DNA of 64,000 bases. Origin: Actinomycetota bacterium (GTDB lineage: Bacteria > Actinomycetota > Geothermincolia > Geothermincolales > RBG-13-55-18). The DNA is taken from positions 58,464 through 122,463 of the forward strand of contig JBFLWJ010000008.1 in NCBI GenBank assembly GCA_040757835.1, read 5' to 3'. The position numbers and the translations under genes were made by a program. Positions 18,236 to 64,000 of the stretch are shown here, in pieces. The notes under the pieces were generated by a model. The model made no database searches. It saw only the letters and a program-made list of their open reading frames with translations, and was not told where the DNA came from. The first letter of the stretch is position 1. The number at the start of each line of letters is the position of its first letter.

Positions 18236-18277
18236 GAGCTGACCCCGGAAGTGCCATTGGAACAAGGGGGGTGTGAC

Positions 18278-21996: not shown

Positions 21997-22187
21997 GCTG
22001 CCCTCCCCTGACCGGCACCCCTCCTACCGGGACGAAAGACCCGCAGCGCGAATCCCGTCCCCTGCATTATGCCACGCCCGCGGCCGCATCACCACCACGC
22101 ACGGGATGTCGCTGCCGCGTAGTATTCTTGAGATCGGGGGAAGGCCCGGCCTTCCCGAAAGCATATGGGTTCTACCAGGAAGGATAC

Positions 22188-35937: not shown

Positions 35938-36030
35938 AGGGGGTCAGCCCCTGACAAGTGACATTGTGCTGCGTTACTGCAACCAGAGCTTCGAGTATGC
36001 TTGGCATGTCACATGTCTGGGGCTGACCCC
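35938..36030. repeat. large imperfect inverted repeat (26-bp arms, 2 mismatches, roughly 40-nt loop)
   Basis: GGGGTCAGCCCCTGACAAGTGACATTG ... CATGTCACATGTCTGGGGCTGACCCC. It lies immediately downstream of the minus-strand uxaA-like gene. Confidence 0.7.
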
Positions 36031-36042
36031 ATAGGAGACCCC

Positions 36043-41569: not shown

Positions 41570-41726
41570 CTCCCCCTCCTTTAACCTGTTACCGTGTCGC
41601 GGCGTACCGAATAACGTACTGGGTCATGATATCGGGTTGACTGCGTGGACCTTGGGAACGCATATATTATACCGCCTGCTGAGGGAATAATATCGTGTGT
41701 GCATTTAATAGAAAGGGTGATCGACC

Positions 41727-42083
41727 ATGAAGATCAGATATGCCACCATGGCTGTTGCGGACATGGATGAGTCGACCAGGTTCTACACGGAAGTCTTGGG
41801 ACTTGAAGTAGAAAGCCGGCACAATCCCCGCCCTGGGTTGACGATCACGTTATTGAAGGGGGAAGGGGATGCGATGATAGAACTCATAGAGGATACCGAG
41901 AATCCCCGAGAAACAGGCCTGTTTTCGGTGGGAATGGAAGTCGAAGACATACGCGCCACAGTGGAGGAACTCAGATCTAAAGGGGCCAAGATCACCATGG
42001 AACCCATACCGATAACCGTTGGGACCCTTGCTTTCCTGGAAGACCCGAACGGGGCCCAGATAGCGTTGATCCAGCACCACTGA
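41727..42083 (+). CDS. VOC-family (glyoxalase/bleomycin-resistance fold) protein
   Basis: 118 aa with the paired beta-alpha-beta-beta-beta modules typical of VOC proteins ([21 protein letters not shown]...). Confidence 0.65.
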
Positions 42084-42160
42084 AGCCACGGAATCTTCGG
42101 CTATTTCTTCGCCTGCCATTTTCATAAAGACAAAATGCTGGTCGCGATGATCAGGGTCAG

Positions 42161-42332
42161 GGCCCGTCCTGCCCGAAAGGCGGTGTGCTTTGCCGCAAGC
42201 CCCCTGGGTCTTAACTCGGCTCCCTTTGCTAAGACACTGTTTTACTGGAAATATGCCTTTTGGAATAGAATATGCCTGGAGCTACCCGAGAAAGGCCGAT
42301 CTTGCGGCTGTGTCCAACTTGTGCCCATTTCC
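42161..42332 (+). repeat. intergenic repeat family copy A (box1 ggcccgtcctgcccgaaaggcggtgtgctt; box2 gctgtgtccaacttgtgcccatttcc)
   Basis: Two conserved boxes about 125 bp apart, shared with copies at 53527, 54296 and 56450. The 30-bp box1 is identical to copy B. Confidence 0.75.
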
Positions 42333-42377
42333 GGAGAGTGGGAATTGCCTTCATCGCCATTGAAAGCTGCGCAACCG

Positions 42378-43220
42378 TTACAAGTCGGTTCTCTTAAGGC
42401 CTTTCAAGATCTGCTCTATCTGATCCAGGCATTCCTGCTTATCGTAGTTGCCGAACATGTGATATAACTCGGCCATGTATTCCCCTATTCCCATGAATGC
42501 GAAACCCAGGATCTCGGGGTTGGCATCTTCCTTTATCTCCCCCTGTTCCACTGCTTGTCTGATATCCCATATGACCGGCTGCACGATATAGTTGAGGCTC
42601 TCCTTATACTTCTCCACAAAGGTCTGGTTGTCGGAAACGGCTATCCCTCTCAGTTGGTTCATCATGTCCCGCCATTTGGGATAGGCGTCGATGAAAGCAT
42701 CCCCCCTCTTGAGCAGTCGGGGGACTGCCTCCTTTTCCTGCCTGATCCCATCCCATACCTCGTTGAACATCTGGTGGAATATATAGTCCGTGCATTCCAG
42801 GAACAACTCCTCCTTATTGTTGAAATACGTGTAGAACGTGGACTTGCTCATCTGTAACTCGCCGACGATATCCTGGATGCTGACCTTATCGTAACCCTTC
42901 TGCGTGAAGAGCTTCGCCGTTGTATGTATTATCTCTTGCCTCCTGTCGATAGATTTGCCCTTGTTTTCCGGCTGCGATTTCTCCGCCTCAAAACGAGCCA
43001 GCTCATCCTTGATGAACCTTATCGGCATCTTCTCCTCTTCCCGCAGTTTCCTTATAAGCTCGAGCCTCTTCACCTCCTCCTCGGTGTAATAGGCCATGGT
43101 CTTTCCGGTCCGCACATGGGGGGCTATCAGGCCCTCCCTTACGTAATACCTTATGGTGGATTTGGGGATGCCCGTCGATTTCTCGAGCTCGCTTATGGTC
43201 AGGTATTTATGCTTTTCCAA
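42378..43220 (-). CDS. dual-HTH transcriptional regulator (N-terminal MerR-type HTH fused to TetR-type HTH/ligand domain)
   Basis: LTISELEKSTGIPKSTIRYYVREGLI (MerR HTH) followed by RRQEIIHTTAKLFTQKGYDKVSIQDIVGELQMSKSTFYTYFNNKEELF (TetR HTH). GC content is markedly lower than the surroundings. Confidence 0.6.
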   Translation of the reverse strand: MEKHKYLTISELEKSTGIPKSTIRYYVREGLIAPHVRTGKTMAYYTEEEVKRLELIRKLREEEKMPIRFIKDELARFEAEKSQPENKGKSIDRRQEIIHTTAKLFTQKGYDKVSIQDIVGELQMSKSTFYTYFNNKEELFLECTDYIFHQMFNEVWDGIRQEKEAVPRLLKRGDAFIDAYPKWRDMMNQLRGIAVSDNQTFVEKYKESLNYIVQPVIWDIRQAVEQGEIKEDANPEILGFAFMGIGEYMAELYHMFGNYDKQECLDQIEQILKGLKRTDL

Positions 43221-43394
43221 TTCGACTCCTCACAACAGACAATGACTATACTTATTTAAGAGCTATATGCACTGTAAAGTCAAGCGCTAAATACTATCTA
43301 GACAGATGGGAAAGTAAGTAAATTACCATATAGAATGGGGTTTAAAAGCAGTAAACAATGCCCTTGACATATAGCCAAAGCTCTTATAAACTAC

Positions 43395-43430
43395 AGTAAT
43401 GTACCGTACCGTACTATTTATAGTACATGG
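43395..43430. promoter_or_regulatory. operator-like site in the divergent promoter: GTACC direct repeats plus the 7-2-7 inverted repeat GTACTATttATAGTAC
   Basis: atgtaccgtaccgtactatttatagtacatgg lies in an AT-rich region between the regulator gene and the thiolase operon. Confidence 0.4.
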
Positions 43431-43489
43431 AATTACCCGAAATTGCCGGTTATTTTCGAAGGTTTCACGCCGGAGGGAAGGAGGCCCAC

Positions 43490-44692
43490 ATGGAAAAGGG
43501 CGAATTCGCTATCATCGGCACCGGCGAGGTGCCCTGCGGCAACTACCCCGCGCGCTCGGAGTTCGAGATCGCGTACACCGTGGCCCGGGATGCCATCCGC
43601 GATGCGGGGATCGACAAGGACGAGATAGGGGCGGTGGTCTGCGCGCAGCACATCATGTCCAATCCCGACAACGACTACAACACGGAGATGGTCTTCGGGC
43701 GCCTCCCCGAGGCCATCGGCGCCAGGGGCTGCAAGATAACCTGCATGACCTCGTCGGGGGGCGCATCCAGCTTCTCGCTCAGGAAGACCGCGGAGGGCAT
43801 ACTCAGCTCTGGAGAGACGGACACGGTGCTCGTGGTGCACGCTCAGCGCTTCTCGACCTTCACCCCCAACGAGCAGGCCAAGTATTTCTCAATCGCCGGT
43901 TCGGATGTGGAGTGGGAGGTCCCATACGGGATGACCTACAACGCGCTGGCGGCTATGGTCACCCAGGGATACATGGCCTACACGGGCACCACTATGGAGC
44001 AGGTGGCCGCGGTGTGCGTGGCCAACCGCAAATGGGCCATGCTGCAGCCCAACGCCATGTTCAACCAGAAGGAGATCACGGTGGAGAAGGTGCTCTCCAG
44101 CCGCATGGTGGCCTATCCACTCACCGCCTTCATGTGCAACGTGCTGGGGGACGGGGGCACCGCCTTCGTCATGACCACGGCTGAGAAGGCTAGAATGGTT
44201 TCCGACCGTCCGGTATATATCCTCAGCGATTCCTCCAGCTATTCCCACCGCACCATCACGAGGTCGAAGTCCAGGGACCTGGGCAAGATGGGCGAGAACA
44301 TGGCACCGGTTGCCAACGCCGCCTACGAGAGAGCCGGCCTGGGGCCTGAGGACATGGACATCTACCAGGTCTACGGTTCTTACCCCACCCTGCAACTCAT
44401 CGTCATGGACGCCCTGGGCATCTGCGAGCCGGGGAAGTCGGGCGCCCTGGTGGAATCCGGCGAGACCTCGCCCGGCGGCAAGTACCCGGTGACCACCAAC
44501 GGGGAGGCTCTCTCCTTCGGGCATACAGGGACCGGGGTGGGCATCGCCCTCCTGGCCGAGTCGGTGCGGCAGCTCCAGGGCAAAGCGGGCAAGGCCCAGG
44601 TGGAGGGGGCGAAGTTCCTCATCGAGAACACCGGCGGCGGCGCCTTCATGGACTGCCACTTCACCGTCCTGGGCAGCGAGATACCTGGTTGA
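43490..44692 (+). CDS. SCP-x-type thiolase-like protein (lipid-transfer protein)
   Basis: Thiolase fold with a Cys-containing N-terminal region (IIGTGEVPCGNY), C-terminal GHTGTGVG and NTGGG. RBS GAAGGAGG. Confidence 0.75.
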   Translation: MEKGEFAIIGTGEVPCGNYPARSEFEIAYTVARDAIRDAGIDKDEIGAVVCAQHIMSNPDNDYNTEMVFGRLPEAIGARGCKITCMTSSGGASSFSLRKTAEGILSSGETDTVLVVHAQRFSTFTPNEQAKYFSIAGSDVEWEVPYGMTYNALAAMVTQGYMAYTGTTMEQVAAVCVANRKWAMLQPNAMFNQKEITVEKVLSSRMVAYPLTAFMCNVLGDGGTAFVMTTAEKARMVSDRPVYILSDSSSYSHRTITRSKSRDLGKMGENMAPVANAAYERAGLGPEDMDIYQVYGSYPTLQLIVMDALGICEPGKSGALVESGETSPGGKYPVTTNGEALSFGHTGTGVGIALLAESVRQLQGKAGKAQVEGAKFLIENTGGGAFMDCHFTVLGSEIPG

Positions 44693-44746
44693 GCAGGAGG
44701 CGGCGGCAAGAACGTGTTGATCTGAAGATATTAGGAGGATCGTGAG

Positions 44747-45205
44747 ATGAGCGAAGAAAAGGTGAGCATCAAGGACCTGCTGGGCCTTTCCGACGAGGAG
44801 ATGCGGAAGCCGCTGCCCGTCCCGACCAAGTGGTCGCAGCCCTTCTGGGACGCGGCGAAGGAGCACCGTCTTGTCCTCAAGAAATGCTCCGCGTGCGGCA
44901 ATATCGACCACCCGCCCTACCTGTACTGCACTGCCTGCCAGGCGGACGAGCATGAATGGATCGAGGCTTCGGGCAAGGCGACCCTCTACTCATATGCCGT
45001 GAACCACTTCGGGGTGCCCTTCCCCTTCTGGGATGATATGCCGTATGTCCTGGCCATGGTCGACCTCCCGGAAGGTGTGCGCATGATCTCCAACATCGTT
45101 GAGTGCGACCTCGAAAAGCTCGTAAACGGCATGGAGCTGGAGGTGGTCTTCGAGGAAGTTTCCGGCGATATCACCTTGCCCAAATGGAAGCCGGCCAAAA
45201 AGTAG
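44747..45205 (+). CDS. DUF35 OB-fold/zinc-ribbon protein (thiolase partner)
   Basis: CSACGNIDHPPYLYCTACQ rubredoxin-like zinc ribbon followed by an OB-fold. The canonical partner of SCP-x thiolases. Confidence 0.7.
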   Translation: MSEEKVSIKDLLGLSDEEMRKPLPVPTKWSQPFWDAAKEHRLVLKKCSACGNIDHPPYLYCTACQADEHEWIEASGKATLYSYAVNHFGVPFPFWDDMPYVLAMVDLPEGVRMISNIVECDLEKLVNGMELEVVFEEVSGDITLPKWKPAKK

Positions 45206-45227
45206 ACGGCGCGAGAAAGGAGCGGGT

Positions 45228-46022
45228 ATGCAAGATTATCAATACCTCATCTACGAGATAGAAGAGGATATCGGGAAGATAACCCTGAACCGACCCAAGA
45301 AGCGCAACGCCCTCAACGCGGAGCTCATCGCCGAGCTCAAGGACGCGGTGCCGCGCATGAACGCGGAGCCCGAGGTACGCTGCGCCATCATCACCGGCGC
45401 CGGCGAGAAAGCATTCTGCGCCGGCGCGGACCTCCCCATCTTCGACACCCTGCAGGAGGTCGAGAAGGCCTACGCGTACCTTCGCAACGACGGCGGGACC
45501 ATCACCCGTGCCCTGGAGACGGCGGAGTTTCCGTGGATAGCGGCGGTGAAGGGTGCCTGCGTGGCGGGCGGATTGGAGCTGGCCTTGTGCTGCGACATGA
45601 TCGTGGCGGGCGAGAACTCCTTGTTCGGCGTGCTTGAGATAAACATCGGGCTGCTTCCCGGGTGGGGAGGTACCGTGCGCCTGCCCAGGGCTATACCGGT
45701 GCGCAAGGCCAAGGAGCTTCTCCTCACCGGGGCCATGATCGACGCCCAGGAGGCGTACCGCCTGGGATTGCTGAACAAGGTGGTCGCGGTGGAAAAGGTG
45801 GAGGAAGAGGCCATGAACATGGCGCGCAGCGTCGCCTCCAAGTCAAAGGCGGCCGTACGCGCCGGGATGAACATCGTCAACAACTCGCTGGCATGTGCCT
45901 CCATAGACGCCGCCCTGGCCCTGGAGCGTGGCACCATCATGACCCTGGTCGGCGCGGAGGAGACGCGCAAGTACCTGGAGCCGGCCATCCGCATGATGCA
46001 GGACATGGAGAAGAAGGACTGA
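45228..46022 (+). CDS. enoyl-CoA hydratase/isomerase (crotonase family)
   Basis: ITLNRPKKRNALN...GAGEKAFCAGADL...AAVKGACVAGGLELALCCD crotonase motifs. Confidence 0.85.
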   Translation: MQDYQYLIYEIEEDIGKITLNRPKKRNALNAELIAELKDAVPRMNAEPEVRCAIITGAGEKAFCAGADLPIFDTLQEVEKAYAYLRNDGGTITRALETAEFPWIAAVKGACVAGGLELALCCDMIVAGENSLFGVLEINIGLLPGWGGTVRLPRAIPVRKAKELLLTGAMIDAQEAYRLGLLNKVVAVEKVEEEAMNMARSVASKSKAAVRAGMNIVNNSLACASIDAALALERGTIMTLVGAEETRKYLEPAIRMMQDMEKKD

Positions 46023-46035
46023 GAAGGGAGCGTAT

Positions 46036-47196
46036 ATGGACTTCTTGCTGACGGAGGAACAGAAGATGCTCCGGGAAACGTTCCGTGAGTTCTGCCGGAA
46101 AGAGATCACCAAGGAGTATGTGCGGTGGCTGGACGAGAACTGCGACTTCCCCCCCCAGGACATGGTCGAGAAGATTGCGGACCTCGGGTTCTTCGGTATC
46201 TCCATCCCTGAAGAATATGGAGGAGCGGGCGCGGGCATGTTCGACCTCTGCGTGGCCCTGGAGGAGCTGGCCACGGCGAGCGTCGCCATGGCCATATCCA
46301 TGGGGCTCACGCCCGCCTTCGGCGGCAGGCCCGTTGCCGAGCTCGGCACGGAGGAGCAGAAGCGGACGTACCTCCCGCCGATCGCCGAGGGGAAGGAGAA
46401 GTGGTGCATGGCCCTGACGGAGCCCGCCGGGGGAACCGATATCCTGGGCGCCATCGCCACCACCGCTGAAAGGGACGGGGACGAATACGTGGTGAACGGC
46501 GCGAAGATGTTCATCTCCGGTGCCCACGTGGCGGACTGGATACTGCTGGTCGCCATCACCGACAAGGAAGTCAAACGCTCGAAGGGCCTCTCCGTCTTCA
46601 TCGTCGATGCCCGCAGCCCAGGCATCACCATCAACCTCGTCCGCAAGGTCGGCATACACGCCTGCGGCACCACGGAGATATTCTTCGAGGACGTGAGGGT
46701 CCCGGCGGCCAACCTGCTGGGGACCGAGAACATGGGCTGGTACCACATCCTGGGGACCCTGAACCCGGAACGTATCGGGACCTCCATGCTCTCGCTGGGT
46801 ATCGCCAAGGCGGCCTTCGACGACGCCCTGCAGTACGCCAAGGAGCGCACGGCCTTCGGCAAGCCCATCGGGCAGTTCCAGATCATCCAGTATTACCTGG
46901 CGGATATCGCCATCGAGATCGAGAACGCCCGCAACCTCATCTACAAGTGCGCGTGGCTCTGCGACGCGGGGGAACGCTTCGACGTGGAGGCCACCATGGC
47001 CAAGATCGTGGCCTGCCGCGCCTCGGAGAAGGCGGCCCTCCACGGCATGGAGATATTCGGCGGGTACGGTTTCACCATGGAATACGATATGCAGCGGCAC
47101 TTCCGGGACTACAAGCAGATGATGTTCAGCCCCATCTCCGACGAGATGAGCATGAACTATATCGCTCAGAGCTGCGGCCTGCCTAAATCATATTGA
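46036..47196 (+). CDS. acyl-CoA dehydrogenase
   Basis: ACAD fold with ALTEPAGGTD and C-terminal IFGGYGFTMEYDMQRHFRD. Confidence 0.85.
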   Translation: MDFLLTEEQKMLRETFREFCRKEITKEYVRWLDENCDFPPQDMVEKIADLGFFGISIPEEYGGAGAGMFDLCVALEELATASVAMAISMGLTPAFGGRPVAELGTEEQKRTYLPPIAEGKEKWCMALTEPAGGTDILGAIATTAERDGDEYVVNGAKMFISGAHVADWILLVAITDKEVKRSKGLSVFIVDARSPGITINLVRKVGIHACGTTEIFFEDVRVPAANLLGTENMGWYHILGTLNPERIGTSMLSLGIAKAAFDDALQYAKERTAFGKPIGQFQIIQYYLADIAIEIENARNLIYKCAWLCDAGERFDVEATMAKIVACRASEKAALHGMEIFGGYGFTMEYDMQRHFRDYKQMMFSPISDEMSMNYIAQSCGLPKSY

Positions 47197-47226
47197 GACT
47201 GCTGAGGGAAAAAGGAGGGGACCTGG

Positions 47227-48783
47227 ATGTATACATTAGGGGATGTGCCAAGAAAAGGGAATACGCTCTATCCACACAAGGAGGCGATGGTCTTCGGGGA
47301 TGTCAGGATCACCTACGCGCAGATGGAGGAACGGGTGAACCGCCTCACCAATGCCATCCTGGGCCTCGGATTCAAGAAGGGCGACCGCCTGACCATACTC
47401 GCAGAGAACACTTTCAAATACATGGAGGTCTATTTCGCGGCAGGTAAAGCCGGGATGAGCGTCACCCCACTGAACTTCCGCCTTTCCGACGGGGAGATCG
47501 TCCATATCGTCAACGACAGCGAGGCTGTCCTCCATCTGGCAGGCGAAGGGTATGAGGAGCGGTCGCTCGGCTTGAAGAAGGAGCTCGAGAAGATCAGGGG
47601 ATGGATATCGCTGGACAAGGAAAGCGAAGGCTACCTCTACTACGAGGACCTCCTTTCCGGTGCCTCACCCGACGATCCCTGGATCGATGTGGACGAGGAC
47701 GAGATGGCGATACTCATGTACACGGGGGGCACCACCGGGCTCCCCAAGGGGGTCATGCTCTCCCACCGCAACCTGATGACCGCGGCCTACGGCTGCATCC
47801 TGGTGTCGGGCTTCGATGCCGACGACGCCACCTGCTTCGTCCTGCCCCTGTTCCATATCTCCCTGTGGCCTGCCCTGTGCCTGCTCATGATGGGGGGCAA
47901 GGTGGTCATAATGCCCCGGCCAGACCTGGTGGAGATATTGCGGCTGATCCAGGACGAGAAGTGCACGCATATCAACCTCGTACCCACCATCTACGGCTGG
48001 CTCCTGAACCTCCCCCAGGTCGATGAGTACGACCTCTCCAGCCTGAGGATCATGACCTATGCCGGGAGCCCCTTCCCGCCCGATGTGCTCAAGCGGTGCA
48101 TCAACAAGTTCGGCAACATCTTCGCGCAGGGGTACGGGCTGACCGAGGCGGCGCCGGTGGTTTCATTTCTCATACCCGAGGACCACGTGCTCGAGGGGGA
48201 TGAAAGGCTTACCAGGCGGCTTACCAGCGCCGGCAAGGAGGCCCACGTGGTGGAGGCCAGGGTGGTGGATGAGAACGACGAGCCGGTCAAGGTGGGCGAG
48301 ATCGGAGAGATCGTGGCCCGCGGCAGGAACATCATGATGGGCTACTGGAAGAACCCCGAGCTCACGGCGCAGGTGCTCAGGGGCGGCTGGCTGCATACCG
48401 GCGACATGGGCACGGTCGACGAGGACGGATACATATACCTCATGGACCGCAAGGCGGACATGATCATCACCGGCGGCGAGAACGTCTATCCCAAGGAGGT
48501 CGAGGACGTGCTCTACGAGCACCCGGCGGTACTGGAAGCCGCGGTGGTGTCCGCGCCGGACGAGAGGTGGGGAGAGAAGGTCCAGGCGGTGGTCGCCCTG
48601 AAGGAGGGGGCCTCCGCCAGCGAGGAGGAGCTCATCGCTCACTGCAAGAAGGGTCTCGCCGGTTATAAATGCCCTAAAGCCGTGCAGATATGGGATTCCC
48701 TTCCCAAGACCCCGATCGGAAAGATCGTCAGAAAGGATATAAAGAAAGCTTTCTGGGGCGACCAGGAAAAGAAAATCGGATAA
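47227..48783 (+). CDS. AMP-dependent acyl-CoA synthetase/ligase
   Basis: AMP-binding motif MYTGGTTGLPKGV, a C-terminal GWLHTGD segment and the conserved Lys region (PKTPIGKIVRK). Confidence 0.85.
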   Translation: MYTLGDVPRKGNTLYPHKEAMVFGDVRITYAQMEERVNRLTNAILGLGFKKGDRLTILAENTFKYMEVYFAAGKAGMSVTPLNFRLSDGEIVHIVNDSEAVLHLAGEGYEERSLGLKKELEKIRGWISLDKESEGYLYYEDLLSGASPDDPWIDVDEDEMAILMYTGGTTGLPKGVMLSHRNLMTAAYGCILVSGFDADDATCFVLPLFHISLWPALCLLMMGGKVVIMPRPDLVEILRLIQDEKCTHINLVPTIYGWLLNLPQVDEYDLSSLRIMTYAGSPFPPDVLKRCINKFGNIFAQGYGLTEAAPVVSFLIPEDHVLEGDERLTRRLTSAGKEAHVVEARVVDENDEPVKVGEIGEIVARGRNIMMGYWKNPELTAQVLRGGWLHTGDMGTVDEDGYIYLMDRKADMIITGGENVYPKEVEDVLYEHPAVLEAAVVSAPDERWGEKVQAVVALKEGASASEEELIAHCKKGLAGYKCPKAVQIWDSLPKTPIGKIVRKDIKKAFWGDQEKKIG

Positions 48784-48800
48784 GGATTCAGGAGGTTATC

Positions 48801-50165
48801 ATGGCTAAGAAAGACAATCCCTTCAAAAACCTGCTCAAGCCGATCAAGATCGGTCCGGTCGAGCTCAAGCACCGTATGGTGCTGGCTCCAATGAACGACA
48901 CCCTGTCCGGCCACAATGGCGAGGCGACTGAGCAGATGATCTCCTATTACGCCGCGCGGGCTAAGGGCGGGGCGGCAATGGTCATCACCGGCGCGATCAT
49001 GGGGACAAAACTGGCATCGCAATTCGTATGGGGGCGCAACCTGTACTGTTTCCATCCCGGGCACATCCAGGGGCTGAAGCTGCTGACCGACCGCATCCAT
49101 TATTTCGGTTCGAACGCCTGCGCCCAGATCACCATCGGGTTCGGACGCCAGGGACATTCCGCCGACCACCACGAGCTCGCTCCCGCTGCCACCGGGGGCC
49201 TTCCTTATGAGATAGCGCTCGAAAAAGGCCCCAAGGCCATCGAGATCTCCTGGAGGAACATCGAGCATCCCCGCTCCTTCCTGGTGGGCCAGATGACCCG
49301 GGAGATGACCATCGACGAGATCCACAGCGAACAGAAGGAGTTCGCCCGCAGCTGCCAGTTGCTGGTCATCGCCGGGTTCGATGCCATCGAGATCCACGCG
49401 CCGCACGGATACCTCGAGCACCAGTTCCTGTCGCCCTTCTCCAACAAGCGGACGGACATGTACGGGGGGGAATGGAGAAACCGCAAGCGCTTCCTGAACG
49501 AGGTCACCGAACAGGTACGTTATGCGGTAGGCTCGGGCGTCGCCCTGGGGGTGCGCATCAGTGCCGAGGAGCACATGGAGGGAGGTCTTACCCGCGAGGA
49601 GATGATCGACGTCGGTAGAGACCTCGAGGAACGCGGTATCGATTACCTGAGCCTCTCCGACGGCGGCGGATACGAGGAGGGCGGGCACCTCGTCCCCGAC
49701 AAAGACCGGGCCAAGCATATTCCTGAACACGGCAGGGACTTCAAGAAGGCCATCAAGATCCCGGTGATGGTCGCCTCCCAGCACGACCCGGTCAAGGCGG
49801 ACAAGGATATCGGGGACGGGATGTTCGATCTCTCGGCCCTGGGACGCCAGCTGTTCATCGACCCCGAGTACCCCAACAAGGTAACGGAGAACCGCCCCGA
49901 TGATATCAACAGGTGCCGTTACTGCCACACCTGTCTTGGCATATCCCTGGCCGGGGCCGGTATCGCATGTCCGTACAACCCGGAACTGGGCCGTGAGTAC
50001 GCCAACCCGGAGTACATGATCGGACCACGCGCGGAACACGAGATCATCATCCCGCGCGGCATGCTCGCCGGTGACATGCCGGCCTTGGACCGGCCCTGGT
50101 GGAAGCCGGAATATCCGGTTATCGAGAAGGCCTGGAGACCTTTCCGCGGCCCGGGCAAGAGATAG
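48801..50165 (+). CDS. NADH:flavin oxidoreductase, Old Yellow Enzyme family (enoate/2,4-dienoyl-CoA reductase-like, with C-terminal Cys cluster)
   Basis: FKNLLKPIKIGPVELKHRMVLAPM N-terminus, HAPHGYLEHQFLSP active-site region and C-terminal CRYCHTCLG...CPYN cysteines. Confidence 0.75.
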   Translation: MAKKDNPFKNLLKPIKIGPVELKHRMVLAPMNDTLSGHNGEATEQMISYYAARAKGGAAMVITGAIMGTKLASQFVWGRNLYCFHPGHIQGLKLLTDRIHYFGSNACAQITIGFGRQGHSADHHELAPAATGGLPYEIALEKGPKAIEISWRNIEHPRSFLVGQMTREMTIDEIHSEQKEFARSCQLLVIAGFDAIEIHAPHGYLEHQFLSPFSNKRTDMYGGEWRNRKRFLNEVTEQVRYAVGSGVALGVRISAEEHMEGGLTREEMIDVGRDLEERGIDYLSLSDGGGYEEGGHLVPDKDRAKHIPEHGRDFKKAIKIPVMVASQHDPVKADKDIGDGMFDLSALGRQLFIDPEYPNKVTENRPDDINRCRYCHTCLGISLAGAGIACPYNPELGREYANPEYMIGPRAEHEIIIPRGMLAGDMPALDRPWWKPEYPVIEKAWRPFRGPGKR

Positions 50166-50223
50166 GGAGGATACCGGCAAGAGTCGGGGGCTGTTAATCG
50201 CCTCAGGATAAAAGGAGTAGATC

Positions 50224-51237
50224 ATGAGCGACGGATTCGAGAAGGACGGTTTCTTCAAGATCGACCCCGAGGCTCACCTGCTGGGGGAGATGGAGCCCAT
50301 CAACCACTTCCCCGGGGTGCAGATGTGGTGGCGGGCGATAGAGAGCATCAGGCGTCCCTTGTTGTTGGGCTTGAAGCCCCCCGTATTCGAGGGATTGGAA
50401 CCGAAGGAGTTGAACAAGGACGAGGACCCCGAAGCCCTGCTGGAGTACATGGACAAGTACGGGGTGGACATCGCCTGCTGCCTGCCCGAGTCCATGATGG
50501 ACACCACCGGCTACACCAGCCGCTGGATGTCGAACGGGGCCATGGCCAGGGTGGTGGACGCCCACCCCGACCGCTTCATGTACCAGCCCAACATCAGCCC
50601 CATCAAGTTCAAGGGCGTGAAGAACACCATCTGGGAGCTGGAGTACTGGGTGAAGGAGCGGGGGGCGAAGATATTCAAGTTCTATCCCCCCGAGGATACC
50701 TACATCAACGACCCCGACCTCTGGCCCTTCTACGAGAAGGCGGAGGAGCTCCAGATCGTGCTCGACATCCACACCGGCTTCTGCTGGGTGCCCCCCGGAA
50801 AGAGCAAGTACGCCCTGCCCCTGCAGCTGGACGACGTGGCCCGGGACTTCCCCGACTTAAAGCTCGTCGCCTTCCACATGGGCTACCCCTACTGCGACGA
50901 CCTCAACATGGTGGCCATGGGGCACCCCAACGTCTACCCCTGCCTCAGCCTGCTCATCCCCTGGGCGATAGGGGCGCCGCGCAAGTTCGCCAAGATCCTG
51001 GGGGAGGCCATGCGCTTCGTGGGCCCGGACCGCATCATCTGGGGATGCGACTATGCCGGCTTCGGCGTGCAGATAAAGACGGCGGTGATGGGCCTGCGCG
51101 AGTTCCAGTTCCCCGAGGACATGCAGGAGGATTACGGCTATCCCGCCCTCACCGACGAGGACCGCGCCAAGATCTTCGGGCTCAACCTGGCCGGCCTGCT
51201 GGGGGTGGACGCATCGAAGCGCAGGATCAAGACGTGA
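50224..51237 (+). CDS. amidohydrolase-2 family TIM-barrel hydrolase/decarboxylase-like protein
   Basis: 337 aa with HTGF, FHMGYPY and CDYAGFG metal-ligand-like positions typical of PF04909. Confidence 0.6.
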   Translation: MSDGFEKDGFFKIDPEAHLLGEMEPINHFPGVQMWWRAIESIRRPLLLGLKPPVFEGLEPKELNKDEDPEALLEYMDKYGVDIACCLPESMMDTTGYTSRWMSNGAMARVVDAHPDRFMYQPNISPIKFKGVKNTIWELEYWVKERGAKIFKFYPPEDTYINDPDLWPFYEKAEELQIVLDIHTGFCWVPPGKSKYALPLQLDDVARDFPDLKLVAFHMGYPYCDDLNMVAMGHPNVYPCLSLLIPWAIGAPRKFAKILGEAMRFVGPDRIIWGCDYAGFGVQIKTAVMGLREFQFPEDMQEDYGYPALTDEDRAKIFGLNLAGLLGVDASKRRIKT

Positions 51238-52205
51238 TGAGGCAAGAGCGCCGACTGGATGTTCATCACCATCTTCTCCCCCCGGAGTACCTGTCCGCCC
51301 TGAACAAGAGAGGCATAACCGAGTTCGCGGGCCGTCCCTTTCCCGAGTGGAGCCCGGAGGTCTCCCTCTCGCTCATGGACCGGCATGGTATAGAGGCCGC
51401 TATAACATCGGTTTCATGCCCGGGAGTATATTTCGGGGACATGGGGCTTGCCAGGGACCTCGCCCGCATGTGCAACGAATATGCCGCGGAGCTTTGTCGC
51501 GGAGAAGACAAGCGATGGGGAGCCTTCGCCGTGCTCCCGCTGCCTGACCTGGATGCCGCGATGGCGGAGCTCGAGTATGCGCTCGATACCCTGCAGCTCG
51601 ACGGCGTCTCCCTGCTCGCGAGCATCGGCAGGCGATATCTTGGCGACCCCTGCTTCGATGAAATATTCGCCGAGCTGAACAGGCGGAGGGCCGTGGTGTT
51701 CATACACCCCAGCGTCCCGCCGGGAAGCGATGTCCCGGAGTTGGACCTGCCATATTTTCTCGTGGAGTTCGTCTTCGATACCACCCGGGCAATAGCCAAC
51801 CTCCTTTTCGGCGGAACCATGGAGAGATGCGCGGACATACGCTTCATCGTGGCTCATGCCGGTGGGACTGTTCCCTACCTGGTGTTCAGGCTGTCCCTGG
51901 GGCAGTTTCTTCCCGGCCTGCAGGAGAAAGTGCCTGAGGGAGTCGCGGCCTATCTCGGCCGCCTTTACTACGACACCGCCCTTTCGGCGTCACCCGCCGC
52001 CCTCCGTTCGCTGCAGGAGCTGGTGGATAGCTCTCGTATAGTCTTTGGTAGCGATTATCCTTTCGCTCCCGAGCTGGCGACCGCGATCACCATCTCAGGC
52101 CTGGAGGACTACGACGGGTTCGACGAGCGGGAACTGAGAGCGGTCTATGGCGAGAACGCTCTATCTCTATTCCCCCGCCTGCAACCGACGGAAAGGAGAG
52201 GATAG
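51237..52205 (+). CDS. amidohydrolase-2 family protein (second paralog)
   Basis: LDVHHHLLPPEY N-terminal His motif, HPS, VAHAGG and GSDYPF. Start overlaps the upstream stop (TGATG). Confidence 0.65.
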   Translation: MRQERRLDVHHHLLPPEYLSALNKRGITEFAGRPFPEWSPEVSLSLMDRHGIEAAITSVSCPGVYFGDMGLARDLARMCNEYAAELCRGEDKRWGAFAVLPLPDLDAAMAELEYALDTLQLDGVSLLASIGRRYLGDPCFDEIFAELNRRRAVVFIHPSVPPGSDVPELDLPYFLVEFVFDTTRAIANLLFGGTMERCADIRFIVAHAGGTVPYLVFRLSLGQFLPGLQEKVPEGVAAYLGRLYYDTALSASPAALRSLQELVDSSRIVFGSDYPFAPELATAITISGLEDYDGFDERELRAVYGENALSLFPRLQPTERRG

Positions 52206-52208
52206 CCC

Positions 52209-53399
52209 GTGAGGGAGACCGAGATAGTCAATACTTCCACCCCGGACGGCCCCTTCAAGGTAGGGGTAAGGACCGAGTGGCTGGAGTTCGAGGGACGCGA
52301 CCTGCGCGTGGTCATCTGGTATCCCGCCCGGGAGGTGGAGAAAGCCGAGCCCCATGTATTCCGGAGCGATGATCTGGGATCCGCGGTGAGAGGGTCGGCG
52401 GTGCTGGAGGCCCCGCCCGACAGGTCGGGCGCGCCCTACCCCATGATACTCTACTCGCCGGCCCTGACCGCTCCCGCGGACGCCTCGGTATTCTATACCC
52501 AGAACCTGGCTAGCCACGGCTATGTCGTCGCCGCCGTCGATCACCTGGATGCAAACCACTTGGACCTGGTCGTCCGGGACGGGAACTGGAAAAACCTCCT
52601 CCGATACTTTCCGAGGATGTTCAAAGAGTTCGTCACCGGCGATCCGAGCGTAACGGTCCTCGTGATGTTCAGCGGCCATTTTCGCAGTACCGAGTTCGGG
52701 CTGAAATACCGGCCGCATGAGGCGAGGCTGGCGATCGACAATGCCGCTATATGGAACGGGGACGCCTCATCGCCGCTGTACGGCATGATCGACCTCGATA
52801 CAATAGGCATGACCGGTCATTCCCTCGGGGCGTGGACCACCCTCCTACTCGGGGGCATGTCCCTCAAGTACGACGAGAGCTTATGTGCCGGCGACTCCGA
52901 TATCAACAGTGGGTGCATCGCCGATCATGACCCCGTCTGCACCCGGTCCGCCAGATCCCTTGAGAGCCCCTACGCGCTGCGGGACGAAAGGATCAAGGCG
53001 ATACTCCCCATGGCTTCGCCGATCTTCCACCACGATGCGCCGGATAACGCAAGGGAGATCAAGGTACCGTTGATGTTCCTTACCGGCGATGATAAGAGAT
53101 GGGAAGCCACTTTCTACCGCCAGAAAGAGGTGTACGACAGCGCGCCAGGCCCCAAACATTTCGTGGTCATCCGGGACACCGATCACTATGTGATCTGCGA
53201 CATGTGGCTGAAATCCCGCGTTATCCTTGCTAGATTCCGGCTACCCAAATTCAAGCAGAATTTCCAGGAGAAGGCCCAGGCTTACAAGGATTACTCAGTG
53301 GCTTTTTTCGATCTCTATCTCAAGGGCGATGACAGTAGAGCGGACGTCCTGCAAGCGCCGAACCAACCTCTTGTAAAACAGGTATGGAGCGAGATATGA
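52209..53399 (+). CDS. alpha/beta-hydrolase fold enzyme (PAF-acetylhydrolase/dienelactone-hydrolase-like)
   Basis: GHSLG nucleophile elbow (IGMTGHSLGAWTT). GTG start after AGGAGAGG. Confidence 0.6.
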   Translation: MRETEIVNTSTPDGPFKVGVRTEWLEFEGRDLRVVIWYPAREVEKAEPHVFRSDDLGSAVRGSAVLEAPPDRSGAPYPMILYSPALTAPADASVFYTQNLASHGYVVAAVDHLDANHLDLVVRDGNWKNLLRYFPRMFKEFVTGDPSVTVLVMFSGHFRSTEFGLKYRPHEARLAIDNAAIWNGDASSPLYGMIDLDTIGMTGHSLGAWTTLLLGGMSLKYDESLCAGDSDINSGCIADHDPVCTRSARSLESPYALRDERIKAILPMASPIFHHDAPDNAREIKVPLMFLTGDDKRWEATFYRQKEVYDSAPGPKHFVVIRDTDHYVICDMWLKSRVILARFRLPKFKQNFQEKAQAYKDYSVAFFDLYLKGDDSRADVLQAPNQPLVKQVWSEI

Positions 53400-53526
53400 A
53401 ACACCTGAAGGAGGGGGATGCCCTCATCCACATCCTCTATGAAGTGGAGCAAGCGGCGGCAGGCCGTATAGATTATATGCCGTGGGACCGTCTTTATCTA
53501 TGCGTCTGGCTTCAGTGGCTATATAT

Positions 53527-53697
53527 GGCCCGTCCTGCCCGAAAGGCGGTGTGCTTCACGGGTACCCTTGTTGCATGTGGCCTCTCTTCTTGTCAGATGC
53601 AGCTCTTGAGCTGGTAATTCAAGGATGATCTGCTGGATGTCGTCAGCATCCTGAAATGACGGGATTGCCCACTGTGTTTAAAACGTGCCCATTTTCG
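53527..53697 (+). repeat. intergenic repeat family copy B
   Basis: box1 ggcccgtcctgcccgaaaggcggtgtgctt (identical to copy A). box2 cactgtgtttaaaacgtgcccattttcg lies about 127 bp downstream. Confidence 0.75.
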
Positions 53698-53786
53698 ATG
53701 GCCAACCTGGCCGGCCTGACAGTCATATAGAATTGGTATAATTATCGCAGAGCGGAGAGCAAAGTAATCGATGGGTAAGAAAGCAT

Positions 53787-54030: not shown

Positions 54031-54243
54031 ATGCCTGAATCAAGCAATTGTCCCAAGTGCGGCGGGGCTATGATCCCGGGGTCGCTCAAAGAGCGAACGT
54101 TATATGGTCCCTCTCCATACCAGTGGGTTCCATCAGATGATGCTCCTTTCCCCATGAAGGGAGCTCCAAGCAATCGACATGATATCTCGATATATCGTTG
54201 TGAGGATTGTGGATACCTGGAATTATATGCAATATCCGGCTGA
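54031..54243 (+). CDS. 70-aa zinc-ribbon protein
   Basis: Strong RBS AAAAAGGAGG. CPKCGG...CEDCG tetra-Cys ribbon. Confidence 0.5.
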   Translation: MPESSNCPKCGGAMIPGSLKERTLYGPSPYQWVPSDDAPFPMKGAPSNRHDISIYRCEDCGYLELYAISG

Positions 54244-54295
54244 TATAAATGACTTGTCTGGTTCTCTATGACGAGTAGATCAGAAGACTCACATG

Positions 54296-54458
54296 CCTCG
54301 AAAGGCGCTGTGCTTGGCAAAATATCTGGCGGAACGGTGTTCTTTGCTCTCCGCCTATGTATATCTTAAGCGGCGTTTTTTCGGCTAAAGGCTGCAAAAT
54401 ACATAGGAGCTTGGAAACCGCCCGATTCCCGGCTGTGTCCAGATTGTGCCTATTTTCT
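54296..54458 (+). repeat. intergenic repeat family copy C
   Basis: box1 cctcgaaaggcgctgtgctt and box2 gctgtgtccagattgtgcctattttct. TGTCCA-N18-ATAATT forms a plausible sigma70 promoter about 100 bp upstream of the AbiEi start. Confidence 0.7.
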
Positions 54459-54555
54459 GATAATTGCTGAGTGTCCAAGATATTCGGATAAGAACCTTTA
54501 CAAAACATGTCTTTATAGCTAATATTATTAATTATAAAAGCATGATACGTAAAGG

Positions 54556-55371
54556 ATGAAAGAGATGGTTGTCAATGAGTTCCTGGAACGGCACCCGGTG
54601 TTCACCCTTACAGAGTTCAAGGCTTTCCTGGATGAGAACGCATCGGTGAACAAGTGGACGCAGCAAAACCTCCTCGCATATTACAAGAAGAAAGGGAGAA
54701 TACTCGGGGTCAAGCGGGGGCTTTACGCCGTGGTACCCCTAGGCATGGAGCCGGACAGCTTCCTTCCCGATCCATTCCTTCTTGCGGCCAAGATGGCGGA
54801 GGATGCAGTGCTCTCATATCATACGGCCCTGGAATTCTACGGTTCTGCCTATTCCGTTCACAATCGCTTCATATACTTGTCTGGGGTTCAGAGAAAAGAA
54901 CTATCCTGGAGGGGATACGTTTTTAGAAGCGTCCCCTTCCCGGGAGCCCTGCTCAAGAAGAGGAAAGAGTCGTTCGGTATAAATGCAGAAGACCGAAGGG
55001 GTCTTGGAGTGAAGGTCACGGGCTTGGAGCGCACCATGGTCGACGTTTTCGACCGGCCCGACCTCGGGGGCGGCTGGGAAGAGATATGGCGCAGCCTGGA
55101 CCTCGTGGACTATCTGAAACTGGAAGAGGTGGTGAGGTACGCCCTGCTCCTCGACAACTCCACGACGGTGGCAAAAGTCGGCTTCTACTTAGAGCAGAAC
55201 AAGGAACGCCTGATGGTGGATGACTCGCATCTCGATCGCCTGAGGAAAAAGATGCCCCTTTCCCCCCGCAAAATGGAGCGCACAGGAAGCCAGCCCGGCA
55301 AATTCGTATCCGCTTGGAACCTGGCAGTTCCCAGGCCAGTTTACGAAAAGGTATGGGAGGAGGTCACATGA
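54556..55371 (+). CDS. abiEi: AbiEi-family type IV toxin-antitoxin system antitoxin (transcriptional regulator domain)
   Basis: N-terminal AbiEi_4-like winged helix (VFTLTEFKAFL...GRILGVKRGLYAVVP). 271 aa. Overlaps the downstream gene by ATGA. Confidence 0.7.
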   Translation: MKEMVVNEFLERHPVFTLTEFKAFLDENASVNKWTQQNLLAYYKKKGRILGVKRGLYAVVPLGMEPDSFLPDPFLLAAKMAEDAVLSYHTALEFYGSAYSVHNRFIYLSGVQRKELSWRGYVFRSVPFPGALLKKRKESFGINAEDRRGLGVKVTGLERTMVDVFDRPDLGGGWEEIWRSLDLVDYLKLEEVVRYALLLDNSTTVAKVGFYLEQNKERLMVDDSHLDRLRKKMPLSPRKMERTGSQPGKFVSAWNLAVPRPVYEKVWEEVT

Positions 55372-56336
55372 TCCTTTCCCGGGAAGGGCTTGCGCGGGCG
55401 GTGGCCTCGAGCGGCTTCCGCGAGGATTACCTGGAGAAGAGCATCAGGTTGCTGTATCTCCTGGAGGCGATCAAGGATAATCCGTTCCTGAGATCGAGAT
55501 TGGTTTTAAAGGGAGGAACGGCACTGAACCTCTTTATCATGGAACTGCCCCGCCTTTCCGTGGACATCGACCTCAATTACATCGGCTCTCCGGAAAGGGG
55601 GGTCATGCTGGAGGAACGGCCCCTGGTCGAACGCACCCTCCAGGCTATCTGCGGCCGCGAGGGATTCCGGGTGAGGCGCATACCAAGCGATCATGCGGGA
55701 GGTAAGTGGTTATTGAGGTTTGATAGCACGCTGGGGAGAGGAGGCTCTCTCGAACTCGACATCAACTTCCTTATGAGAATCCCTCTTTGGGATCCAAATA
55801 CTATTGATTCTCAAGCCCTAGGCGATCATCAAGTAGGTGGCATCGCTGTACTGGACAAACATGAGCTTATGGCGGGTAAAGCCGTTGCCCTGCTGTCGCG
55901 CAGGGCGGCCCGTGACCTCTTCGATTGCCATGGGTTGCCAAGAGCCCTATCCCTTGTTGCCGACAAGCTGCGTCTGGCCTTTGTCGTAAATGGAGGCATG
56001 AGCCGGAGGGATTGGCGCGATGTATCGCTTGACGACATAGGATACGACATCAATGAATTGCATAACGTTCTCCTGCCCACTCTCCGCAATGATTATGCAT
56101 CGGGTATCAAGGATGTCAGTTCTTGGGCAGACCGCCTGGTGCTCGAGTGCCGGGAAGAGCTTTCGGTCCTCTTGCCCTTGCGAGCGAACGAGGTCGATTT
56201 TCTCACGTCTTTGAACGAGGAAGGAGAGATACTCCCAGGGCTGCTGACATCAGATAAATATCTGGCACGTAAGATCGAGAGGCAACCTGGGTTGCTCTGG
56301 AAGGCTCAAAATGTCAAGGAATACAGAAGAACATAG
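55368..56336 (+). CDS. abiEii: AbiEii/AbiGii-family nucleotidyltransferase toxin (DUF1814)
   Basis: Hallmark LKGGTALNLF...RLSVDIDLNY nucleotidyltransferase motif. 322 aa. Confidence 0.8.
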   Translation: MILSREGLARAVASSGFREDYLEKSIRLLYLLEAIKDNPFLRSRLVLKGGTALNLFIMELPRLSVDIDLNYIGSPERGVMLEERPLVERTLQAICGREGFRVRRIPSDHAGGKWLLRFDSTLGRGGSLELDINFLMRIPLWDPNTIDSQALGDHQVGGIAVLDKHELMAGKAVALLSRRAARDLFDCHGLPRALSLVADKLRLAFVVNGGMSRRDWRDVSLDDIGYDINELHNVLLPTLRNDYASGIKDVSSWADRLVLECREELSVLLPLRANEVDFLTSLNEEGEILPGLLTSDKYLARKIERQPGLLWKAQNVKEYRRT

Positions 56337-56449
56337 TTGCTCAACACAAAATGTACCCTCACTTTATCTGTTCTCGAGATATAATTCACTGCGCATCGTG
56401 AATATAATACGATATGGTAATATATGTTAAGCTCGTGCACCTCGAAAGG

Positions 56450-56602
56450 CGTTGTGCTTACCCACCAATCCTGCGAATCCAATAATTGTAGGCACCACAA
56501 ACACATGCTTTTAGCTGGGACAATATGTCCGTTGTGACCTATTCCGTTTTTTTCTCGAAAAGTGTGATTTGCCCTGCTGTGTCCATATTGTGCCCATTTT
56601 CG
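56450..56602 (+). repeat. intergenic repeat family copy D
   Basis: box1 cctcgaaaggcgttgtgctt and box2 gctgtgtccatattgtgcccattttcg. TGTCCA-N17-TATATT forms a promoter-like element upstream of qatA. Confidence 0.7.
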
Positions 56603-56762
56603 TATATTTGGGCATTTACTAGGTACTCTTGTGGATTAATTGCGCTAATTGCCTATCTGACACCTGAATCAATGGTGTGCTTTCAGCACCACAGATGTAT
56701 CCTATACTCTGTAGAAGGGGTTGTAGAATACTGTAAAACCTATTTTACATGAGGGGGATGCT

Positions 56763-58562
56763 ATGTGGCCTGATAATGAGACGTCGATCGACCTTCTAGG
56801 CTTTGAACATCTTGTCGATGCACTTGAAATTGTGCTGACAGACTCGAAATTGCTCCCTGTGACAGTGGGCGTAGTTGGTGACTGGGGGTCTGGAAAAACG
56901 AGCCTAATACGGATGGCTGAGGAAAAGCTCAAGCAGATTCCCGGAATCGTAACTGTATCTTTTAATCCTTGGCGTTTTGAGGGTTACGATGATATGAAAG
57001 CTGCTTTGATGTCGGCAGTTATTTCTGAAATTGAAAGGAAAATTGAGGATAACCCTACCGTATTCGAAAAAGTCGCTAGAGGCTTGAAAAGACTTGCGCG
57101 AATAATCGGTTTAGTTCGAGCAGCACCTATAGCTGCTGCAGCACTTGCCTCTGCAGCGCACGCCCCAACTGCTGTGGCGTTAATGTTAGGCGAAATGGCT
57201 GGAGCAGTTGCCGAAGCAGCTACAGAGGAAAAGGAAGATGAAGATACGGAATTAGTATTATCTATCGCTGAATTCCATCAGGAGTTCGAGCGAATAATGA
57301 AAGAATTGGGCGACGAAGTTGAAGCAGTCATCGTTTTTGTAGATGATCTCGATCGCTGTTTGCCAGAAACGATCATTAATACTTTCGAGGCCATCCGATT
57401 GTTCCTCCATGTTAACAAGACTGCATATGTAATTGCAGCCCACCCAAGGATAGTGGAGGCGGCAATTGAAGCTAGATACATTGACAACAGACGCGGGGAT
57501 GAGAATCTAGGGCGCGACTATTTAGAAAAGATCTTCCAAATGACAATAACGGTGCCAGCGCTTTCGGAACCAGAAGTTGAAAGCTATATTAACTTACTTC
57601 TGTCTGAGCAATATCTGGAGAGAGAAGAGTTAGACAAACTGCGTGAGGAAGCTAGTAAGCGGCGGCGTGAGGGCCAATTCGGTGTAGTAATGAACTATGG
57701 AATCGCAAGTGGGATAATTGGAGGCTCAAAGGAACTCGATTCTGACTTTGCTCTAGCAAATCAAATTGCGCCCGTGCTTGCTAGGGGTTTACGCGGAAAT
57801 CCACGGCAGATTAAAAGATTCCTCAATACATTTATGCTACGACGGCGTACTGCGGAGCGGCGGGGTATAGACTTGGACCCTGCAATTTTGGCGAAATTAA
57901 TGATACTTGAGTTAAATCTGGAAGAGTTTAAGCAACTCTTCTTATGGCAGCTTGTGCAGGATGGTCAACCCAACGAACTGGTTGAAGCGGAGGAAAAAGC
58001 GCGCTCGAATGCTATACAGGAACTAGAAGGAGAAGTCGCAACTTGGGCAGCCAGACCCAATGTGTTGGAATGGTTGTGTCTTGATCCACCTCTAGCCGAT
58101 TTACCGCTAGGTAGATATTTCTATTTCTCCCGCGACAGACTATCTCCGGCTGCTCCTGCAGCAAGATTATCAGCTGCTCTACAGGAACTCCTGGCACGGC
58201 TACAAGTTGATTCAGACGCACTACGTCGGGCTGCCATCAATGAAGCAGTAAGTCTGCCGAGGGAGCAAATTGTTCAGGTCTTCGATGCTCTTCTTGAGAA
58301 GGCAATTCGTAAGCCAGAGGGACCTGCAATGGATAGCAGCTTGGAACTCGCGGCGAAACAACAAACGCTCATTGATGATTTTGCTAATGCACTTGAAAGA
58401 ATCCCTGTCGCGAGCGTACCAATTCATCTGCCCTTGAAAATCCGATTAACTTTCGGGGATCAGAATCCACGTCTCGAAGCAGTATTAGATTCTTGGGATA
58501 AATGCGGGTCTGGGGATCTAAGAAATGCTATTGTCCAAGCCCGAAGCAAGGGAGATACGTAA
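56763..58562 (+). CDS. qatA: QatA, KAP-family P-loop NTPase of the QatABCD anti-phage system
   Basis: Walker A GVVGDWGSGKTSLI and KAP-type Walker B VIVFVDDLDRCLPE. 599 aa. It is the first gene of a four-gene translationally coupled operon. Confidence 0.8.
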   Translation: MWPDNETSIDLLGFEHLVDALEIVLTDSKLLPVTVGVVGDWGSGKTSLIRMAEEKLKQIPGIVTVSFNPWRFEGYDDMKAALMSAVISEIERKIEDNPTVFEKVARGLKRLARIIGLVRAAPIAAAALASAAHAPTAVALMLGEMAGAVAEAATEEKEDEDTELVLSIAEFHQEFERIMKELGDEVEAVIVFVDDLDRCLPETIINTFEAIRLFLHVNKTAYVIAAHPRIVEAAIEARYIDNRRGDENLGRDYLEKIFQMTITVPALSEPEVESYINLLLSEQYLEREELDKLREEASKRRREGQFGVVMNYGIASGIIGGSKELDSDFALANQIAPVLARGLRGNPRQIKRFLNTFMLRRRTAERRGIDLDPAILAKLMILELNLEEFKQLFLWQLVQDGQPNELVEAEEKARSNAIQELEGEVATWAARPNVLEWLCLDPPLADLPLGRYFYFSRDRLSPAAPAARLSAALQELLARLQVDSDALRRAAINEAVSLPREQIVQVFDALLEKAIRKPEGPAMDSSLELAAKQQTLIDDFANALERIPVASVPIHLPLKIRLTFGDQNPRLEAVLDSWDKCGSGDLRNAIVQARSKGDT

Positions 58563-63871: not shown

Positions 63872-64000
63872 GGCAACCTCCTTTCGGTCGTTCCCCATTA
63901 AGGGGAATGGTTTACGGATAAACTTGTGGCGGCCTCACGGGAGACCGCCACCTCGAGACAGGCATCCCTTCCTGCCTGGTGGCGCCCTGCCCCGATATGG

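Follow-up and report, generated by a model that had tools for sequence, protein, structure and literature searches.

The 64,000-nt stretch of an Actinomycetota genome analysed here (positions 58,464 to 122,463 of contig JBFLWJ010000008.1, assembly GCA_040757835.1; hereafter the window, to which all coordinates without a locus name refer) carries four full copies of a ~190-nt element, all on the + strand, which belong to a family with tRNA-Ser(CGA) ancestry. These copies (sites A to D) occupy the gaps between gene modules of distinct G+C content and bound three complete modules, all of which lack a recombinase. The sites are probably serial core-type attachment (att) sites of integrative elements that targeted the anticodon loop of tRNA-Ser(CGA), with the integrase-less modules between them forming a tandem array. 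As such, they form a new family of a kind of system that is well known, and the result explains how this genome came to have an 11-kb catabolic operon next to two phage-defence systems: each is a module of its own, and the modules are stacked at recombination sites of a single type.

Structure of the repeated element

The + strand contains the 30-mer GGCCCGTCCTGCCCGAAAGGCGGTGTGCTT twice without a mismatch, at 42161-42190 and 53527-53556, and no further match occurs in the window at ≤3 mismatches (0 expected, based on 100 dinucleotide shuffles). The exact repeat pair described in an earlier sequence-only reading is therefore real and not due to chance. Domain searches also agreed with the gene content which that reading had named between the repeats, and with its observation that the block contains no integrase, as no recombinase domain was detected in the block or in the other tested open reading frames (ORFs) of the window. 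The identity between sites A and B comprises exactly 30 nt; the adjoining bases differ, the flanks are at background similarity, and so are the middle 115 nt. Overlooked at that stage was that the 30-mer is one end of the ~190-nt element, of which two additional, diverged copies are present at 54276-54470 and 56421-56614. A profile search with nhmmer recovered exactly these four copies.

Repeat finding and alignment revealed a second conserved box, CTGTGT(CC/TT)A....GTGCC(C/T)ATTT, 135-137 nt 3' of the first motif C(C/T)CGAAAGGCGNTGTGCTT. The two motifs are located at 42171/42308, 53537/53672, 54296/54433, and 56440/56577 in sites A to D, respectively, corresponding to spacings of 137, 135, 137, and 137 nt, and each element has two direct repeats TGTG(T/C)CCA, 11 bp apart, ~135 nt downstream. 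From left to right, the element consists of a poorly conserved left arm of ~13 nt, the proposed crossover region (C)TCGAAA, and a conserved right arm GGCGNTGTGCTT, after which come the decayed 3' half of a tRNA and an arm of ~100 nt bearing the box CTTAAGCTG and the TGTG(T/C)CCA repeats at a fixed distance from the core (133-135 nt). In an alignment of 14 copies, the core forms an imperfect palindrome, AAAGCNCAYCYGCC(T) / TCGAAA / GGCGNTGTGCTT, with a centre of 5-7 bp, a well conserved right arm and a variable left arm.

Site A (42149-42345, nhmmer E 7e-41) lies between a glyoxalase gene and a regulator gene, with its core at 42161-42190 and its direct repeats TGTGTCCA/TGTGCCCA at 42309-42327, while the repeats of site B (53517-53706, core 53527-53556, E 2e-40) are degenerate and located at 53672-53697. 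Site C (54276-54470, E 9e-49) has the core AGACTCACATGCCTCGAAAGGCGCTGTGCTT at 54286-54315, and its direct repeats lie at 54433-54458; the right part of this site is most similar to that of the metagenomic loci L002 and L003 and retains CTCTCCGCC, the 3' strand of the tRNA acceptor. The core of site D (56421-56614, E 2e-42) is at 56430-56459 and its direct repeats are at 56577-56602. The core C(C/T)CGAAAGGCGNTGTGCTT followed ~135 nt on by TGTGYCCA repeats provides a signature with which such modules can be searched for in related uncultured actinobacteria.

Ancestry in tRNA-Ser(CGA)

Two copies in related loci, L017 12078-12140 and L015 ~7685-7745, read CTCGAAAACCGTTGGGCCTCGCGAGAGGTCTCGTGGGTTCGAATCCCACCCTCTCCGCCA, which runs from the anticodon loop CU-CGA-AA and the 3' anticodon stem through a long variable arm and the T arm to the acceptor strand and CCA. 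Both are the 3' part of tRNA-Ser(CGA), starting from the anticodon loop CTCGAAA. Rfam matched them to the tRNA clan (E 0.0013), and a profile built from the eight full elements alone also found these tRNA-like copies (E 2e-7 and 4e-4). Moreover, the tRNA end in L015 is followed by GACTATGCTTAAGCTGG and then by TTGTGACAAAAATTGTGACAAAT, which is the middle box plus direct repeats of the element.

The 13 copies that were aligned range gradually from a true tRNA half to decayed forms. Expressed as a z-score against shuffles, similarity to the tRNA beyond the loop was 14 for the L015 copy at 7745, 4.7 for L015_2782 and L009_3, 3.2 for L009_1, and about 2.7 for site C, L001f, and L004, decreasing to 1.5, 0.7, and 0.4 for sites A, B, and D, respectively. 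A stretch resembling the T arm persists in the intermediate copies (z 4.7 versus shuffles). As the scores of sites A, B, and D are insignificant, the tRNA origin of the two 30-mers is transitive, through the family, rather than direct. Islands in tRNA genes (tDNA) are expected to have a co-oriented fragment of the target tRNA at their boundary, and here such a fragment is represented by L017 and L015_7745, linked to the window copies by the family profile and the graded intermediates. Furthermore, the palindrome arms are GCGGT/ACCGT in the true tRNA versus CGCC/GGCG in the elements, with the symmetry kept, suggesting that the sites may now serve recombination and not tRNA repair.

Breakpoints at the core and copies in related loci

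Four independent comparisons showed similarity breaking within ~15 nt of CTCGAAA. L002 and L003, which come from two metagenomes and differ in their left contexts, are 100% identical from CCTCGAAAGG rightwards and unrelated leftwards; an identical site and right flank in two contexts indicates recent movement. In L009, copies 2 and 3 have an identical left arm and 77% identity further left, with the right side at background, whereas sites A and B of the window have only the 30 nt in common. In addition, the 89% identity between L009 and L015 covers a P-type ATPase gene and the entire site as far as the left arm, past which the two loci are unrelated. Crossover thus appears confined to a short symmetric core, as in tDNA islands, given the four breakpoints and the palindromic arms.

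Pattern scans of public collections yielded one locus among genome contigs and three among metagenome contigs, namely an actinobacterial metagenome-assembled genome (L001, SURF_21) and the metagenome contigs L002-L004, all with full copies. The same scan gave only chance matches in viral contigs, and BLAST found no match to the element in plasmids and phages. The best matches of the flanking E1-alpha gene were 92%, 86%, and 82% identical, and a 68% match is named Candidatus Geot..., which, as far as this gene can tell, places the window in an uncultured actinobacterial lineage. Among the relatives, L009 has three co-oriented copies, L015 two (L015_2782 and L015_7745), L017 one, and L007 a shortened copy plus a degenerate solo core; L012, L018, and L019 have no copy, and their neighbouring genes also differ.

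The full site and an armless solo core (3797-3831) in L001 bracket a gene for a DUF4143 AAA ATPase, and the shortened site and degenerate solo core in L007 bracket an unrelated gene of 407 amino acids; both bracketed genes adjoin orthologous ligase genes (72% identical). The arm with the direct repeats always accompanies the cargo on its right. The three L009 copies (19855-20164, 15647-15929, and 12630-12918) share an extra ~150 nt left of the core with a second TTGTGCC direct-repeat pair and CGTGAAATACGGGNAAATAC (two AAATAC repeats), possibly a second (P) arm, of which the window copies have a short version or none. Two further features were noted in these loci. In L001, 1647-2063, located 5' of the ligase gene, has ORFs in several frames that repeat PGLARVRP-like peptides, suggesting a tandem DNA repeat. 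In L017, a DDE_3 transposase gene (9102-9737) lies directly upstream of the P-type ATPase gene, whose 3' end abuts the tRNA-Ser fragment, and may explain the loss of the arm sequence there.

The tail of the catabolic block was also found in L015. Window positions 50565-53405 show 87-91% nucleotide identity to L015 12472-9482, and the homology ends at the stop codon of the hydrolase gene, after which L015 continues with a 65-aa ORF and a URO-D gene; the tRNA-Ser fragment site at ~7745 lies beyond these two genes, 1.7 kb from the end of the homology. The unit bearing the block therefore ends at a site of this family in both the window and L015, at unequal distances from the last shared gene. L015 was reached via the P-type ATPase; an amidohydrolase search for relatives of the block returned best matches that were 63-68% identical and non-syntenic.

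Proposed origin of the array

The following scheme would connect these observations. The attP of an integrative element would hold a copy of the tRNA 3' part, so that each integration would leave a co-oriented fragment, and successive integrations into an existing site would produce a head-to-tail row in which every module keeps its own arm on the left and one site separates neighbours. Sites A and B would then be the left and right junctions of the module composed of the regulator and the catabolic operon, and their 30-bp identity would be the segment common to the site of the incoming element and its target. Since no module in the window encodes a recombinase, the modules could be cis-mobilizable passengers of an integrase encoded elsewhere, or could now be fixed in place. 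The data show the family, its descent from a tRNA, the array, and the breakpoints at the core, whereas the kind of recombinase, what the direct repeats do, and any current mobility are inferred: the TGTG(T/C)CCA repeats may represent arm-type binding sites of a heterobivalent tyrosine integrase. The array of att-bounded modules without recombination genes is itself the pattern by which cis-mobilizable elements and accretion are recognized.

The sequence-only reading had taken the repeats as the footprint of site-specific integration, and in this respect the palindromic core, the descent of the family from the anticodon-loop region of tRNA-Ser(CGA), a classic target of integrases, and the core breakpoints speak in its favour. 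What has to be revised is the idea of a lone attL/attR pair, as the tandem array has four junctions, of which A and B are two, and further modules are bounded by C and D. It had also named a widely dispersed element unrelated to the block boundaries as a ground for refutation; the repeat does belong to a dispersed family, yet this family marks module boundaries, and that ground does not apply.

Several points weigh against an array of att sites. Sites A, B, and D have no significant tRNA similarity beyond the loop (z 0.4-1.5), and the decayed tRNA halves would be unable to restore a functional tRNA. ARAGORN detected no intact tRNA gene in the window or in 20 related loci, and the canonical intact tDNA upstream of the fragments is missing, the region left of site A consisting of the glyoxalase gene and core genes. 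The search for a recombinase revealed no integrase, excisionase, or transposase domain, either among the tested ORFs of the window or among the precomputed annotations for related loci; more specifically, an integrase inside the island, as expected of tDNA islands, is lacking, the tested ORFs being devoid of Phage_integrase, Recombinase, and Resolvase domains. Likewise, no empty site came to light, and none of the relatives has the flanks of the window: L012, L018, and L019 are devoid of any site, but their neighbours differ from those of the window. Finally, the homology of L015 with the block stops ~120 nt before the position at which core B would be expected.

Alternative explanations

The lack of a nearby integrase or intact tRNA gene, the decay of the tRNA-like part in the window copies and the background similarity of the middle 115 nt would all agree with dead relics, that is, with fossil tRNA-fragment att sites or segmental duplications, in which case the array would stem from old events and homologous recombination and the A/B identity from gene conversion. 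This is nevertheless unlikely, because the core, the CTTAAGCTG box, and the direct repeats are conserved at fixed spacing in copies whose sequence is otherwise randomised, which argues for selection, and L002 and L003 share a 100% identical site and right flank with two left contexts in two metagenomes. Homologous recombination, moreover, would not put four breakpoints within ~15 nt of one core. At the opposite end, a bolder form of the att-site reading, to which we give a slightly smaller chance still, is an integron-like platform for gene capture, in which a ~190-nt site derived from tRNA-Ser would have been freed from the tRNA gene (arms re-tuned, tRNA half decayed) and a single integrase acting in trans would stack and shuffle cassettes, from single genes up to AbiE, Qat, and the catabolic operon, at several chromosomal places in this uncultured actinobacterial lineage. 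Should the sites still be active with no integrase or tRNA gene next to them, they would constitute a cassette-capture system missed both by Islander logic (intact tDNA plus integrase) and by attC-based integron finders.

A shared cis-regulatory region, with the palindrome and direct repeats as operators of one transcription factor and an outward promoter co-regulating the defence and catabolic modules, appears improbable. Copies C and D do have a plausible -10 hexamer (GATAAT and TATATT) 17 nt after TGTCCA, facing the AbiE and Qat operons, and direct repeats 11 bp apart resemble response-regulator boxes. However, a consensus promoter scan did not call motif 2 and placed separate promoter-like sites further downstream; the next gene is convergent in site A, L001, L002, L004, L009, and L015, leaving nothing to drive, and both the tRNA ancestry and the core breakpoints would be left unexplained. 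There is hardly any probability that the element is a gene for a structured non-coding RNA or a small peptide that recurs between the modules, even though most copies are predicted to form a short hairpin around CGAAA and one frame reads P-(A)-R-K-A-[VL]-C-[FL] in all four. A structured RNA was rejected on three grounds: Rfam gave no relevant match in the window, whether gathering or permissive thresholds were applied, RNAalifold predicted a weak consensus fold for either strand (-2.8 and -5.2 kcal/mol) with near-zero covariation, and folding is no better than that of shuffles (minimum free energy z-scores -1.95 to +0.88). The reading frames dispose of the peptide: in copy D, which lacks a start codon, a TAA stands in frame immediately upstream, and the points at which the frames end are unrelated. 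Equally implausible are attC sites of the integron type or remnants of a miniature inverted-repeat transposable element (MITE) or insertion sequence, although co-oriented repeats between small cassettes including toxin-antitoxin and defence genes are reminiscent of sedentary chromosomal integrons. The aligned copies rule out both architectures: they have no R''/R' boxes (RYYYAAC ... GTTRRRY) in common and no extended imperfect palindrome across the element, their fold is not better than that of shuffles, no IntI turned up, and the 190-nt element shows neither inverted repeats at its two ends nor target-site duplications.

Gene content of the modules and the window

The G+C content of the modules (0.46-0.63) is distinct from that of the left flank with host-like genes (0.64-0.70). 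To the left of site A, the glyoxalase gene (41727-42083, +) already belongs to the variable region, since synteny with the closest relatives (L007 and L012) stops at ~41695-41701. Module 1 (G+C 0.51-0.63) starts with a gene encoding a MerR_1 + TetR_N fusion regulator (42378-43220, -), whose product has an N-terminal MerR-type helix-turn-helix (HTH), a TetR_N HTH, and a TetR-like C-terminal part; this two-HTH architecture is unusual, and the G+C content of the gene is about 0.51 versus ~0.62 in the operon that it precedes. The catabolic operon (43427-53399, +) encodes a thiolase-like protein, a ChsH2 OB/zinc-ribbon (DUF35) protein, an enoyl-CoA hydratase (ECH), an acyl-CoA dehydrogenase (ACAD), an AMP-ligase, an old yellow enzyme (OYE) homologue, two Amidohydro_2 proteins, and a PAF-AH/PETase-like hydrolase. 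An ORF at 50325-52205 was discarded as an artefact spanning both amidohydrolase genes.

Module 2, only 759 bp from site start to site start, harbors a gene for a DUF6487 zinc-ribbon protein (54031-54243, +; G+C about 0.5), and module 3 (G+C 0.48-0.57) the toxin-antitoxin/abortive-infection pair AbiEi/AbiEii (54556-56336, +). When read from the first start codon after a stop, the two AbiE ORFs (54556-55371 and 55314-56336) overlap by 58 nt. Module 4 (G+C 0.46) contains QatABCD (56763-61346, +), encoding QatA (KAP NTPase), QatB, QatC (QueC-like), and QatD (TatD), a complete anti-phage system in a genome with a G+C content of about 0.66. The profile search found no further site from module 4 to the end of the window, placing the right end of the array outside the window. 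Directly after the Qat operon, two proteins of 674 and 110 amino acids (61357-63898, -) had no Pfam or PADLOC match, and the G+C content climbs to 0.61; these genes could be a defence gene pair or the start of another module.

Elsewhere in the window, three tandem paralogues with Fer4 and CCG (heterodisulfide-reductase-like) domains at 15485-19520 appear as the direct-repeat families D1, D3, D4, and D8 with a spacing of ~1.3-1.46 kb. Two large genes in the high-G+C part (21978-28687) encode PD-(D/E)XK and UvrD-helicase domains, resembling an AddAB-like helicase-nuclease pair. In addition, intergenic inverted repeats were detected at 35931-36039 and 11020-11150 (34 nt at 82% and 30 nt at 90% complementarity, with loops of 41 and 71 nt, respectively), with GGGGTCAG/CTGACCCC-like arms.

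Comparison with known systems

Fragments of tDNA are known to mark island ends, crossover centred on the anticodon is common, and repeated integration builds tandem arrays (PMC4383910). Members of such arrays that lack an integrase, termed cis-mobilizable elements, have been described as well, and the catabolic islands at ssrA in Dehalococcoides are one case (PMC3146451). Literature searches returned no described actinobacterial cassette system specific to the present case.

Islands targeting tRNA or tmRNA genes with crossover in the anticodon loop (the 'A' sublocation of Islander; Williams 2002, cited in PMC4383910) resemble the window in that repeats of the tRNA 3' part starting from the anticodon loop mark their ends, the core is the symmetric anticodon-stem region, the fragments are co-oriented, and the cargo is foreign in composition. 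Unlike these islands, the window and the loci examined have no intact tDNA or integrase, the window repeats are decayed beyond tRNA recognition, and the palindrome arms have changed with their symmetry kept. The Dehalococcoides ssrA islands, formed by accretion, likewise comprise a row of catabolic and other modules bounded by repeats of the target-gene 3' end, some of them without integration genes and proposed to have moved in cis or trans; they differ in their tmRNA target, 20-bp repeat, and serine (CcrB-like) recombinase, present in many islands (PMC3146451), whereas the window has a ~190-nt site with arm-like boxes and no recombinase was seen.

Actinomycete elements of the pSAM2/SLP1 type share an actinobacterial host with the present system, and their att identity segments also start at the tRNA anticodon loop. 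They carry int/xis as well as replication and transfer genes and restore a functional tRNA; the modules described here, in contrast, are as short as 0.76 kb and have neither int/xis nor replication or transfer genes. Similar to the cassette arrays of integrons, the window has co-oriented sites between small, often single-gene cassettes with toxin-antitoxin and defence genes, but it differs from them in lacking the attC architecture and IntI and in having the site at the upstream (left) end of each cargo unit.

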